Positions 18,940 through 22,945 are shown, counted from the first letter of the stretch. The stretch: 64,000 nt of DNA from Paraspadella gotoi (GCA_051294375.1 CM119270.1:2393273-2457272); one strand, 5' to 3'. Made by a program: numbers and translations. The notes: generated by a model not told the origin, from the letters alone.

Positions 18940-19180
18940 TGGAGTTGTGGCGAATCCTAAATTCGTCTCCCGTATAGCTTGACGAAACTCAGCTCGTCAC
19001 CTTCGCCAATCGTGAGTTCCAGGTTCAATCCCCTTATGGTCACGCTGGATAAAGTGTGATGGTGTTGGCGTAAACACGCCTGTGACATGAGGTGGTCACT
19101 GCAGTTCCAAAGCCCTGAGCGCCAGCTGTTGGGAGATGCCTCACACCCCGGCCATGACACATGTGCCCCCGTTGCCATAG
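18940..19180 (+). mobile_element. tRNA-headed SINE-like element, family 3
   Basis: B-box ggttcaatccc (about 19022); body and 3' end cccgttgccatag shared with 22740-22945. Confidence 0.75.
19044..19126 (+). ncRNA. Twister ribozyme, P5-type permutation (family 3)
   Basis: P5 gctgg/ccagc; GTGT-G-A-TGG-tgttggcg-T^AA-ACAC-GC-[ctgtgac..gtcactg]-cagt-TCCAAAGC-cctg; P2 GTGT/ACAC, T1 TGG/CCA, T2 GC/GC; one P4 mismatch. Confidence 0.82.
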
Positions 19181-19439
19181 AGTCTTCAATTTTTAGTCAT
19201 TAGATCCTAGGACAAAACGTTTAATCTTAAATGTTTACTCTCAAATGTAAACTTATACTTATCTACAATCGGTTTTAATGTCACCTCATGTATAAATGTA
19301 AACCTATGCAACAATTGATTTAAATGTCGACTCAAGAACAAATGTAAACCTATCGGTTTTAATGTGAGTATAAAAGTAAACCTATGTAAACCTAAGTAAA
19401 CAATTCAAGATGGTATGGTGGACTAAAATCCACCAACTG

Positions 19440-19606
19440 TTCATCAGCGGTCATTGGTGCCAGAGGCAAGTCAACCTCCCAACCCAAAGGTCCGGGGTTC
19501 TAGCCCGGTGGCCGCATAGCAGTTAAGAGGGACGATGTGCTTAACCCGCCTGTAACACGGTGTTACAGTCTGATCCGAAGCTCAGGGACTGCTTATATTG
19601 AACGGT
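19440..19606 (+). mobile_element. tRNA-headed SINE-like element, family 2, with P5-type twister variant (19519-19592)
   Basis: cctcccaacccaaagg..ggttc head shared with 51232-51400; gcagt..GAGG-G-A-CGA-tgtgct-TAA-CCC-GC-[ctgtaac..gttacag]-t-ctga-TCCGAAGC-tcag..actgc. Confidence 0.75.
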
Positions 19607-21334
19607 TCTGTCATTAACACTTATCAATAATTACTGTCTCTTCAATGGTATTTTTCTTCAACTGAACATCGTTGTCCTTCACCCAGGATATTCGGTCTTC
19701 GACCCTAGGAACTTGATTTTTAAATCCAATGTCACGTCTAAAGATAATTTAATTTGATCGGATTTTCTTCGGTGGGTCATTAAGCAAATTAAGTTTAAAT
19801 TAAAAACTGGTCTTCATGAGAAGAAACCGCATAAATGAGAAAGATTTTTTCCCAGCTTAATTTAGGAACCTGAAATACTTCGGTCTCGAAATTTTCTTTT
19901 ATTTAAAAGGTCATGTCCATGTGGTAGATTTTTTTTTTAAATAAAGAAAGGCTATATTTAAATATACGTTTAATTTATTCAGTATTGTAAAAATATGATT
20001 ATGACGTAAACAAGGCAAGAAGTAACTTTAGAAAACAATGGGAAGCATTTCTCAATAAAATAAGCACAAATGGAACTCTCGCATCCACGCGCATCATGTC
20101 GAAAATGTATCGTCCAGTTGTTATAATCAAAATTGTAAGTTGGGTTATCAATAAAAGTCTAGATTTTCATAGTAATTCGAGAAATATCTCCTACGGCCTC
20201 CGACGTACAATATTTAAGATAAGAATTTGTAATTTGGATGTTGGTGCCAAATCGTTTTGTCAGAATACTCTGGTGCAACTTAAAGAAATCTCGGCCCAGT
20301 ATTTTTAGAGTGATAAGACGACAGTTTTACCAAAGAACAAAGCGATAAAACGACCTTAAAATTGCCCGAAATATAAACCCGACAAAACTCGTCCGTCGAC
20401 CACTTTCCTTTCATCCTTGAAAACTCCTTTGCCGCCTTCGCCGCGGCCTCCGCCACCTCCGCCGCCGCCGCCGCCGCCGCCGCAGCCCGCCCCGACCTTC
20501 GCCTTTCCATCTTTTCGAATCCAAATCTCAAGAAGAAAAACGAGTTTTTGCTTCGCGACTGTTTTTCCCTTTTCGTCTCTCTGATTCTCACGGAACCAGA
20601 GAAGATGAAGTCAGCGGGAAGCCATTCGTTTCTTGGAGCATCTGAGGAGTGTAGCCTTTTCTTTGGACTTTGCTGTGGTAGTTTTTGCGGTATTTAGTGT
20701 GACCTTGTGTGCTTAGTATGGTTTTTAGTGGGTCTTTAATATTCTCTGCTGTTTTATTGTCCTTTAACTCTTTAATGCAATTTGATTTACGAATGACTAC
20801 AACATCTTGAGACATTAAATTACCTTTGAAATAAAACTTTATTAATCGTTATTTTTCCAACGAGATGACCAAAAATAAAAAACAAAAATAAAAAAAAAAT
20901 AAAAAAAAATACATTTAAAAAAAAAATAAGAAAGCTTCCAAGTCCGTGACGTCATCTCCGTTAAAAACAAGACGACGCCAATGACCGCGGGTGCCAATCG
21001 TGCGGCGCCGATGAATACGTGTGCCGGCACCTGCGGCTCTGCATCGCTCTCTCTTTCTCTCTCTCTAGCTATCTATCTATCTATCTATCTATCTTTCTAT
21101 TCATCTATCTATCTATCTATCTATCTATCTATCTATCTATCTATCTATCTATCTCTCTCTCTCTCTCTTCTCTCTCTCTCTCTCTCTCTCCTCTCTCTCT
21201 CTCTCTCTCTGCCATCGACTAAAATAAACAACCTGGGAAAGCAGAAATCCCGTTCTCAATTCTCGATCCATCCTTCAGACTTCAGACTTCCGTCTTTTTA
21301 GTCCTTCACCTTTCTTCTTTCATTCATGGCTTTT

Positions 21335-21720
21335 CTTGGTCGTCGTTCGTCGTTGTCGTCGTGACAATCGTCGTCAGTGTCACCGTCGTCTTCCTCATCC
21401 TCGTCGTTGTCGACGTCGTCATTGTCGTCGTCGTCATTGGTCGTCGTCTTCCTCGTCGTTCTTTTTGTCGTCCTTTTAGTCATCGTTGTTGTCATCTTTA
21501 GTTGTCAGTGTCATCGTCAACAGCGTCGTTGTTGTCATCATCGCCGTCTTCCTTGTTGTCGTAATTGACGTCTTTATCATCGACGTAGTCATTGTCATCA
21601 GTGTCATCTTTGTCATCAGTGTCGTCGTCGTCGTCTCCGTCATCGTTCTTGAATCTTGTCCTCGTCCTTGTGGTCGTCGTTGTCGTTGTCGTCGTCTTTC
21701 TCGTCTTTTTGGTCTTCATT
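21335..21720. repeat. (GTC/ATC)n degenerate trinucleotide tract; complementary-type tract at 26130-26680
   Basis: Direct reading; produces poly-D/T/V/S ORFs in all frames. Confidence 0.9.
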
Positions 21721-22041
21721 ATTACTGTCTGTCCGTTGGTCTGTTCCAATTATGTTTTAAAAGCTTATGTAACTCGAGTAATTAAGTTCTTATTTGGTAT
21801 AAAGGTTGGGTACTATAAGAACTTTAATGCGCATATGTATCAAATTGAGCAGTCACGTGATCTCTTAAAAAAGTGATCAGATGACCCAACATTCAATGCG
21901 GCTTAAATTTGGGACGAGGAATCTGAGCGACTGCTTGATTTTAAAGAAATCATTTCAGATTAGGTTAGAGTTTAGGAGTAAGGATCAGGTTAGGGATTAG
22001 GGTTAGAGATTAGGTTAGTGATAAGGGACAGGGATTAGGGT

Positions 22042-22326
22042 TGTAGTCGGGCATTGCCTAGGTTCACCCCGCCTATAAGCATGACATTTTCAGTTGTGAC
22101 CCGGTGGCTCATTGAGTAAAGCCATCAGTTCATGACCACTAGGTACCGGGTTCAATCCCAACCCGCTACCTACCCTGCGGGAAGTGTCAGGACGGCCGTA
22201 AGCCACCTTAGGGGTGTGGCAAATCCTCAAGCCTGGTTCCAAGACCAGGACCCGTTCCATGGCTGCTATAGGGGGTTATAGAAGTTATGGATAGTCAACT
22301 TCAGCCTACTTAGCGCCTTATCCACA
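22042..22326 (+). mobile_element. tRNA-headed SINE-like element, family 1, with mutated twister (22178-22254)
   Basis: A-box-like cggtggctcattg, B-box ggttcaatccc; GTGT-C-A-GGA-CGGCCG-TAA-GCC-AC...cctgg-TTCCAAGA-ccagg; homologous to 4225-4498 and 46125-46365. Confidence 0.8.
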
Positions 22327-22464
22327 GGGTTAGAAACCAAGATTTAGTCAGAGATGAGGGTTTTATGGGTTTAGGATTTTGTATTTTGACTTTCTTTTTG
22401 CTATTTAAAAATAGTTTAGAGATGAAACGAAAAATTCGTTGTAATAGCAATTTTTATTTGATTA

Positions 22465-22510
22465 TTGTACATGTTTTGACTCTTAGTATTGCGAGTCTTC
22501 ATCAGGTTTA
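22465..22510 (-). ncRNA. Degenerate minimal hammerhead (GAAA changed to AAAA, probably inactive)
   Basis: Minus strand: CTGATGA-a-gactc(gcaatactaa)gagtc-AAAA-catg-TA; stem II intact, core and stem I decayed. Confidence 0.6.
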
Positions 22511-22535
22511 GCATTAAAATTGGTTGCAGCGATTT

Positions 22536-22685
22536 AGATTAGAAATCGGTCGGTTTTGGAAATGAGAGCGATTAAGATTAGAAATGGGTCGGTTTTGGAA
22601 AAGCGAACGCGAGCGAGCAAGATTAGAAATGGGTCGGTTTTGGAAAAGATAGCGATTAAGATAAGAAATGGGTCGGTTTTGGAAA
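22536..22685. repeat. Four 39-45 bp tandem units (gattagaaatgggtcggttttggaaa core)
   Basis: Direct reading. Confidence 0.9.
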
Positions 22686-22739
22686 AAAGAGCGCCCTGTG
22701 GCAGCAAGACTTAAAGCTGCCTCACTGCTGTCCGTCCTC

Positions 22740-22945
22740 AGCCTCGTCTCAATGGCTGAGCAGGCTAAATCATCTCATTCCATCCGTGCGTCCCGGGTTC
22801 AATCCCCGGTTCTGGCTTAAATGTGACGGTGCCGGTATAAACATGCCAGTGACAGGAGGCGGTCACTGAGGGTCCGCAGCCCCTACGCCAGTTGGTGAGA
22901 TACCCCGCGCCCCGGGTATCACAGGCTATCCTCCCGTTGCCATAG
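22740..22945 (+). mobile_element. tRNA-headed SINE-like element, family 3
   Basis: A-box-like tggctgagcagg, B-box ggttcaatccc, body homologous to 18940-19180. Confidence 0.8.
22812..22891 (+). ncRNA. Twister ribozyme, P5-type permutation (family 3; all stems intact)
   Basis: P5 ctggc/gccag; ATGT-G-A-CGG-tgccggta-T^AA-ACAT-GC-[cagtgac..gtcactg]-AGGG-TCCGCAGC-CCCT; P2 ATGT/ACAT, T1 CGG/CCG, T2 GC/GC, P4 AGGG/CCCT; one conserved loop A is C. Predicted cut at 22838/22839. Confidence 0.85.

Follow-up and report, generated by a model that had tools for sequence, protein, structure and literature searches.

Repeat families at the locus

The window analysed here, meaning the whole 64,000-nucleotide stretch of Paraspadella gotoi DNA (GCA_051294375.1, CM119270.1:2393273-2457272), contains three families of short dispersed repeats in seven named copies. 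Identity within families is 72–82% over the aligned parts, and the sole similarity found by local alignment between families 1, 2 and 3 is a B box. The repeats are most likely solo long terminal repeats (LTRs) of Helenus-type miniature LTR retrotransposons, and structural modelling supports a twister-type P5 fold behind an RNA polymerase III (Pol III)-type promoter in these abundant mobile units. An earlier note on this DNA had reported the three families, and all are present at the places it gave; its boundaries were right as to general location, and several were off (the true spans are 19414-19644, 22697-22944, 18946-19179 and 51192-51427).

Element ends were located by the pile-up of loose ends among contigs of public sequencing runs, aligned at 80% likeness. 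The number of contigs recruited per run ranged from 661 to 11,524, and those of run X9, possibly an RNA run, covered the repeats and not the unique flanks. The copies and their flanking duplications are as follows.

22697..22944, plus strand: copy 3b, family 3, likely solo LTR; TGTGG...CCATA; contig loose ends at 22697 and 22944
22693-22696 and 22945-22948, plus strand: 4-bp target duplication GCCC of copy 3b, read from the window
18946..19179, plus strand: copy 3a, family 3, likely solo LTR; 3′ loose ends at 19179, 5′ end listed at 18945, off by one
18942-18945 and 19180-19183, plus strand: 4-bp duplication GAGT of copy 3a, read from the window
19414..19644, plus strand: copy 2a, family 2, likely solo LTR; TATGG...CTTCA; loose ends at 19414 and 19644 in four of four runs
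19410-19413 and 19645-19648, plus strand: 4-bp duplication ATGG of copy 2a, read from the window
51192..51427, plus strand: copy 2b, family 2; AGTAG...CCACA; ends picked partly via the duplication, not fixed independently
51188-51191 and 51428-51431, plus strand: 4-bp duplication AGCG of copy 2b
22042..22326, plus strand: copy 1b, family 1, likely solo LTR; TGTAG...CCACA; loose ends at 22042 and 22326, where homology to copy 1a stops
22038-22041 and 22327-22330, plus strand: 4-bp duplication GGGT of copy 1b, read from the window
4225..4498, minus strand: copy 1a, family 1; TGTAG...CTACA; flanking 4-mers agree at only two of four bases
46125..46365, plus strand: copy 1c, family 1; without its 5′ part, insertions in the ribozyme region
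8028..8162, minus strand: eighth, family-1-like copy, diverged and 3′-truncated; starts at 8162 and stops inside the ribozyme (5′ half of the twister); nhmmer E 4.5e-10

In run X1, the contig depth summed across the elements exceeds that of the flank by a factor of 1,400 to 11,000 (medians), which, read as an order of magnitude and not as a copy number, suggests that each family is present in thousands of copies. The ends of copy 3b form an imperfect terminal inverted repeat of 9–10 bp. Separately, an AT-rich segment is duplicated at 53450-53900, 56000-56500 and 46070-46120, and a piece of it adjoins the truncated 5′ end of copy 1c.

Element ends and target duplications

Loose ends piled up in the public contigs at 19414/19644, 22042/22326, 22697/22944 and 19179. 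Exact 4-bp target duplications flank five of the seven copies, with both ends fixed independently for three copies; the chance that two random 4-mers of the window agree is 0.006 per element. The ends of copies 1b and 3b had been predicted beforehand from the duplications and coincide with the contig loose ends found later. The termini are canonical TG..CA in family 1, TG..TA in family 3, TA..CA in copy 2a and AG..CA in copy 2b, and non-TG..CA termini are likewise present among published Helenus LTRs (PMC10886601). The tRNA-like part begins 25–55 nt inside the element, a leader preceding the promoter, and an A-rich or simple-repeat tail is absent from the elements. Together, the fixed ends, the TG..CA-like termini, the 4-bp duplications and the lack of a tail point to the footprint of an integrase and not to target-primed reverse transcription. 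The 5′ hairpin of copy 2a had at first suggested a Helitron, an idea abandoned once the 4-bp duplications had been found.

The flanks of most copies are unrelated to one another (agreement about 0.4), which indicates that solo units dominate. In family 3, the flank consensus across copies reads ATAT on both sides, with an agreement of only 0.4–0.5. Directly upstream of the LTR start of copy 3b, a G-rich purine tract is found in at least three contigs from two studies (two in run X6 and one in run X9), and the 3′ ends of published Helenus internal parts resemble this purine-rich flank.

tRNA-like region, a likely promoter

A motif scan detects the B box in six of the seven copies, together with A-box-like motifs; the box is degenerate in 46125-46365. 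The positions in three copies are:

22746..22817, plus strand: tRNA-like region of copy 3b with an A-box-like motif and a B box (22796), from the motif scan; weak Rfam tRNA match of 13.8 bits, E 3.7
19496, plus strand: B box of copy 2a
22149, plus strand: B box of copy 1b

ARAGORN called no tRNA in the elements. The tRNA-like region is likely a Pol III promoter, as its boxes suggest, and in six of the seven copies no stretch of four consecutive T follows the B box.

A predicted permuted twister fold downstream of the B box

The window was scanned with a descriptor of the P5-type twister in which mismatches are counted as defects. A stricter first version, which caught only two copies, was subsequently loosened; the descriptor was thus tuned on these elements, and its figures somewhat overstate significance. 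Six of the seven named copies were recovered with 1–2 defects, and copy 46125-46365 fails. Dinucleotide shuffles of each element reached two defects or fewer in 0–2 of 1500 cases. Over the whole window, 10 sites lie at two defects or fewer (six of them in the named elements), as compared with about 1.5 per block-shuffle, and the four sites outside the elements have no neighbouring B box. All six copies measured have the order P5, P2′, G-A, T1′, a short P1 hairpin, U^AA, P2, T2, P3, P4/L4 and P5′, and in all six the twister starts 42–50 nt past the start of the B box. The stems P1, P2 and P4 that characterize the twister class are found, in P5-permuted order, in six of the seven copies. The predicted scissile U is located at 4353 (minus strand), 19071, 19542, 22199, 22838 and 51335. 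The candidates are:

22812..22891, plus strand: best P5-type twister candidate (copy 3b); general-base G at 22825; predicted cut 22838/22839; 28 of 28 modelled pairs form
19044..19126, plus strand: twister candidate (copy 3a); predicted cut 19071/19072; P3 and P4 each contain a mismatch
19519..19592, plus strand: twister candidate (copy 2a); predicted cut 19542/19543; bulged P2, a mismatch in T1 and one in P1
22177..22255, plus strand: twister candidate (copy 1b); predicted cut 22199/22200; broken at the general base and in T2
within 4225..4498, minus strand: twister candidate (copy 1a); predicted cut 4353/4352; P5 and the base that follows the general base are damaged
51308-51387, plus strand: twister candidate (copy 2b); predicted cut 51335/51336; T2 of the AC/GU type

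The U^AA site, the general-base G with the A that follows it, and the U and A of L4 are present in copies 3a, 3b, 2a and 2b, and broken in the window copies 1a and 1b. Both pseudoknots, T1 and T2, are intact in 3a, 3b and 1a, with one defect in 2a, 2b and 1b. Given its broken general base and T2, the twister of copy 1b is likely inactive. The pair that closes P4 by L4 is G-C in 3b, 1a and 1b, a mismatch in the window copy 3a and A-U in both family-2 copies; in L4 of copy 3b, C replaces the first A. RNAfold recovers P5, P3 and P4 of the copy 2a twister.

The cut sites 22838/22839 and 19071/19072 put forward in the earlier note were obtained at the same positions from the descriptor, and all pairings it had quoted are present. 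It had placed a twister in seven copies, which holds for the six that pass the descriptor and not for 46125-46365, and it had described a four-pair P2, which in families 1 and 2 is in fact two pairs, a bulge and one pair. The Rfam search that it had proposed with the twister-P5, P1 and P3 models gave no significant match: with E values of up to 1 admitted, the window as a whole yielded none for twister, and the elements yielded none for P5 or P3 at E up to 10. The best match was a partial twister-P1 hit of 17 bits (E 1.2–7; cut-off 67.2), with the P1 match at 19067-19123, and the Rfam matches over the whole window were microsatellite artefacts. The hammerhead core pattern occurs in none of the elements. 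Among 52 viral and 51 metagenome loci from pattern scans, none is homologous to the elements and none has a convincing twister (three of the 103 lie at two defects); two family-specific viral scans gave no match.

Conservation of the fold among copies

When copies 3a and 3b are compared, four of 28 modelled pairs are changed on both sides (in T1, in P2 and two in P4), and between 2a and 2b this applies to five of 26 pairs (in T2, two in P3, in P4 and in P5); slid-structure controls give 0–1 double-sided changes. Across the families, T1 uses three different triplet pairings. Conserved columns make up a larger share of the ribozyme core than of the leader (0.75 vs 0.31 and 0.68 vs 0.37 in two pairs). 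Alignment across families with MAFFT misaligns P3/P4. Apart from the B box, no sequence common to the three families could be detected, yet the fold and its 42–50 nt spacing are kept.

Copy 3b shows no difference from the other genomic copies that reaches 20% of depth and therefore represents its subfamily. The majority differences listed in or near the ribozyme for 3a, 2a and 1b touch 11 modelled pairs, of which nine are mended or strengthened, one is broken (at the loop end of P3) and one is unpaired either way. The general base that is missing in 1b is present in about 99% of depth at that site. This better pairing in most genomic copies implies that the founders had an intact core and that single copies decay. 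The view expressed in the earlier note, that self-cleavage is under selection, is supported for the comparison between families and subfamilies and not for single copies.

Proposed mechanism of replication

Two-LTR master copies with a primer-binding site and a polypurine tract, moved by a Gypsy-type reverse transcriptase and integrase, probably exist. A solo copy cannot be a master, since the leader, lying upstream of the promoter, would be missing from its transcript. On the modelled fold, cleavage at U^AA by the founder copies is very probable. Given these premises, analogy with known retrozymes makes it fairly likely that replication runs from Pol III transcription through both LTRs, by way of twister cleavage and an RtcB-type circle, to reverse transcription round that circle. 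Transcription by Pol III would begin in the 5′ LTR and continue into the 3′ LTR, and the twisters of both LTRs would cut. The product would be a unit-length RNA with a 5′-OH and a 2′,3′-cyclic phosphate, containing one complete permuted LTR, the primer-binding site and the polypurine tract, and having no terminal repeat. With a P5-type twister, each end of the cleaved monomer carries one half of the same fold, so the P5/P2/T1 helices may hold the ends together and aid ligation, and an RtcB-type ligase would close the RNA into a circle. The DNA made by reverse transcription round the circle would then be integrated in solo, full or multimeric form.

Within a SINE (short interspersed element), a ribozyme would sever the RNA from its promoter (PMC5786205), a problem that disappears in a two-LTR element. 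For plant retrozymes, circularization has been described and reverse transcription round the circle has been put forward as the source of solo, full and multimeric inserts (PMC4918200), and RtcB circularizes animal retrozyme RNAs in vitro (PMC7229834). As a whole, the interpretation of the repeats as solo LTRs of three Helenus-type families with a Pol III promoter, a P5 twister and the full circle mechanism is, on balance, somewhat favoured. If true, the arrangement would be a natural counterpart of the engineered tandem-twister circular-RNA cassette.

Weighing of the interpretation and its alternatives

Several observations weigh against this interpretation. On the side of the insertion mechanism, copy 1a is without a matching duplication (two of four bases agree; copy 1c lacks its 5′ end), canonical TG..CA termini are restricted to family 1, and the flank resembling a polypurine tract rests on at least three contigs among those listed. 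Neither a two-LTR copy nor a primer-binding site was seen in the window and the public contigs, and as to an autonomous partner in the window, none of 118 further frames matches a retroelement Pfam family. On the side of the ribozyme, there is the absence of a significant Rfam twister match, and in RNAfold the six ribozyme regions have z-scores that do not stand out (-1.2 to +1.5), which is the normal outcome where the model leaves pseudoknots aside. The covariation has a basis of two sequences per family, its counts are matched by 33 and 25 of 500 shuffles, and in family 1 none of 28 pairs shows a double-sided change. P1 has only 2–3 pairs and a loop of 2 nt; in families 1 and 2, a variable bulge separates the third pair of P2 from the first two; and P4 in family 2 is closed by A-U, a position at which twisters are described as having an essentially invariant G-C pair (PMC5408937). 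In favour of the fold, P1 is dispensable (PMC5408937; PMC5113685), and in a screen of 1948 natural twisters, imperfections in P1, P2 and P4 were tolerated, including A-to-C at the A.A contact of L4, and pseudoknot and catalytic changes were not (PMC11662667). That cleavage screen began with type-P1 twisters, so its tolerances are carried over to the P5 type by inference, which is a further point against.

Four other explanations were considered. The repeats could be solo LTRs with an active twister and no circle, the ribozyme merely standing in for a T-run terminator by forming the 3′ terminus of a linear transcript made by Pol III, and a terminal repeat that spans the tRNA start up to the cut serving ordinary strand transfer. 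Six of the seven copies are indeed without T4 after the B box; in most published Helenus LTRs, by contrast, inspection by eye shows one shortly past the tRNA part, and Cassandra has a short terminal repeat from Pol III start and stop (PMC10886601). However, the ribozyme of the 5′ LTR would cut too and remove the terminal repeat, and a T4-free stretch of ~150 nt is, by estimate, not unusual at such a composition; this explanation is regarded as unlikely. Somewhat less probable still is that the units are complete non-autonomous DNA transposons, i.e. Ginger2-type MITEs (small transposable elements with inverted repeats), with the tRNA-twister cassette as cargo. Cnidarian Ginger2 has TGTNR termini, 4-bp duplications, a preference for RTATAY targets and a non-autonomous family of 252 bp (PMC2836005); TGTAG and TGTGG stand at the start of families 1 and 3, the family 3 flanks lean to ATAT, and single units alone were seen. 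On the other hand, TGTNR is common to Gypsy LTRs as well, and the inverted repeats of Ginger elements measure about 40–300 bp (PMC2836005), as against 5–10 bp at most here and none in 2a; terminal inverted repeats of about 45–180 bp, characteristic of Ginger2, are not found. A DNA transposon also gives no reason for a promoter and a ribozyme in three unrelated families, and the flank resembling a polypurine tract (in at least three contigs) speaks for LTR elements instead.

The remaining two explanations concern the origin of the fold and of the whole unit. A real but non-catalytic fold or structural relic, captured for example from an RTE or Penelope-like element and kept by descent or as a packaging structure, would account for the missing Rfam match, the P2 and P4 deviations of families 1 and 2 and the defects in most window copies, and the twisters at RTE 5′ ends are a ready source (PMC8501958; PMC7761336). 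It is nonetheless improbable, as the catalytic and pseudoknot positions are kept across otherwise unrelated families with double-sided changes, and as 3b, which represents its subfamily, has every core feature. In size, A/B boxes and abundance the repeats are SINE-like, and Schistosoma has Pol III SINE-like repeats that carry a hammerhead (PMC6765202), so target-primed reverse transcription could have inserted them as tRNA-headed SINEs, the view of the earlier note, or as non-LTR retrozymes akin to Sm-alpha. The B box of that description stands in six of seven copies, but the tRNA-like part is not at the 5′ head: the elements end 25–55 nt before it behind a leader, both ends are sharp, and the duplications are a constant 4 bp with no tail. 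A 5′ tRNA head, a tail and variable, longer duplications, the marks of tRNA-derived SINEs, are accordingly not found. Animal non-LTR retrozymes are moreover tandem and have longer duplications (PMC7229834), and an internal ribozyme would detach a SINE from its promoter (PMC5786205). The SINE explanation is therefore largely refuted already and is given a very low probability.

Other features of the window

A near-perfect palindrome lies at 18359-18479, and a partly similar, high-depth repeat at 22364-22530 between elements 1b and 3b; they are possibly a MITE. The depth of the latter relative to its flank is very unlike between runs X1/X5 and X6. On the minus strand, 11776-14589 is an intron-free frame of 938 codons whose N-terminal part is an SRCR domain; upstream of it lies a weak LDL-receptor-A exon (16047-16211, minus strand). 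Full-length relatives of this frame are found at 25–31% identity; four of ten clusters are named, all hydrozoan (Hydra, Hydractinia, Clytia), names that by themselves would point to a cnidarian host, and a word-index protein search and a protein atlas gave no match to it. A multi-kilobase unit with GA-rich tracts occurs three times, at 27273, 31633 and 40255 (spacings about 4.36 and 8.62 kb), and tandem arrays are located at 57444-59800 (units of about 23–24 bp) and 2909-3360 (18-bp units).

Significance and comparison with known systems

No report of a twister in an LTR, TRIM (a miniature retrotransposon with terminal repeats) or SINE, or of a ribozyme in Helenus, was found in the open-licence literature; the families may have been catalogued already with the ribozyme unnoticed. 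Twisters have almost no assigned natural roles, and the elements offer a concrete, testable one in a very abundant setting. They illustrate that thousands of twister-like RNAs can elude Rfam, and their diverged subfamilies form a natural library of P5-type twister variants. They also join two element classes that have been described apart, the Helenus TRIMs and the retrozymes.

Helenus elements are TRIMs (TRIMp3) with a tRNA-like, presumed Pol III, promoter in the LTR; the animal families have 4-bp duplications and depend on Gypsy, and solo LTRs occur (Kojima 2024, PMC10886601). As in the window, they have a short LTR, an internal A/B-box tRNA-like region behind a leader, several families per genome and some TA termini. 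The diagnostic A/B boxes inside the LTR are found here, with a weak tRNA score, as is the animal-type 4-bp duplication. Unlike the window elements, which have a twister in the ~150 nt after the B box, Helenus has no ribozyme reported in the available text of PMC10886601; five twister-L4 motifs had no match among the Helenus LTRs of its Data S1, where line breaks could hide some. Cnidaria are not included in the available host table of that paper. In two wasp LTRs of the same Data S1, Helenus-2_SyJa-LTR and Helenus-2_SyUm-LTR, a complete type III hammerhead layout can be read by eye downstream of the B box. It comprises the cleavage triplet, stem I, CUGAUGA, stem II, GAAA and complementary loops and is not mentioned in the available text, and it suggests that the pairing of a Pol III LTR with a ribozyme recurs.

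The fold itself agrees with the type P5 twister (PMC5408937) in having its termini in P5 and in P1/P2/P4, T1/T2, U^AA, the G-A after P2 and a UAAA-like junction. It differs in an extra P3, a minimal P1, a bulged P2 (families 1 and 2), the A-U pair closing P4 (family 2) and the lack of an Rfam P5 match. As in eukaryotic type-P1 twisters, P3 starts with CUG/CAG. A twister in an animal retroelement is known from the RTE/Perere-3 long interspersed elements (LINEs) of Schistosoma (Liu et al. 2021, PMC8501958), where it is of type P1 and located at the 5′ end of an autonomous LINE, whereas here it is permuted and internal to an LTR-like unit. A review mentions truncated twisters at RTE 5′ ends and unpublished type III hammerhead elements in insects (PMC7761336). 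Metazoan non-LTR retrozymes and Schistosoma Sm-alpha are likewise short animal repeats with a self-cleaving ribozyme, with a Pol III promoter ahead in Sm-alpha (PMC7229834, PMC7761336, PMC6765202, bioRxiv 10.64898/2026.07.22.740005). These retrozymes are however tandem, hammerhead-bearing and Penelope-linked and lack an LTR, primer-binding site and polypurine tract, in contrast to the dispersed, twister-bearing elements with integrase-type ends described here.

In published accounts, LTR retrozymes belong to plants and carry hammerheads, and the retrozymes of animals are of the non-LTR kind (reviews; bioRxiv 10.64898/2026.07.22.740005). The plant LTR retrozymes resemble the window elements in being non-coding LTR elements with 4-bp duplications, one ribozyme per LTR and solo LTRs, and are Gypsy-dependent (PMC4918200). 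They carry type III hammerheads in LTRs of about 330–350 bp, with no tRNA-like promoter described in the available text, as opposed to a twister and a tRNA-like promoter here, and their circular RNA has been demonstrated, whereas for the window elements the circle is a prediction. The hammerhead per LTR that defines the class is not found, and by this analogy the repeats are best explained as elements that would work like a retrozyme and fall outside the class as defined. We tentatively propose an animal genome with several families of LTR retrozymes that diverged long ago, are driven by Pol III and processed by a twister, and would combine RNA circles with Gypsy machinery; in tRNA-promoter TRIMs, the ribozyme would then be a module open to exchange. 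If true, the known range of LTR retrozymes would grow to include animals besides plants and the twister besides the hammerhead.

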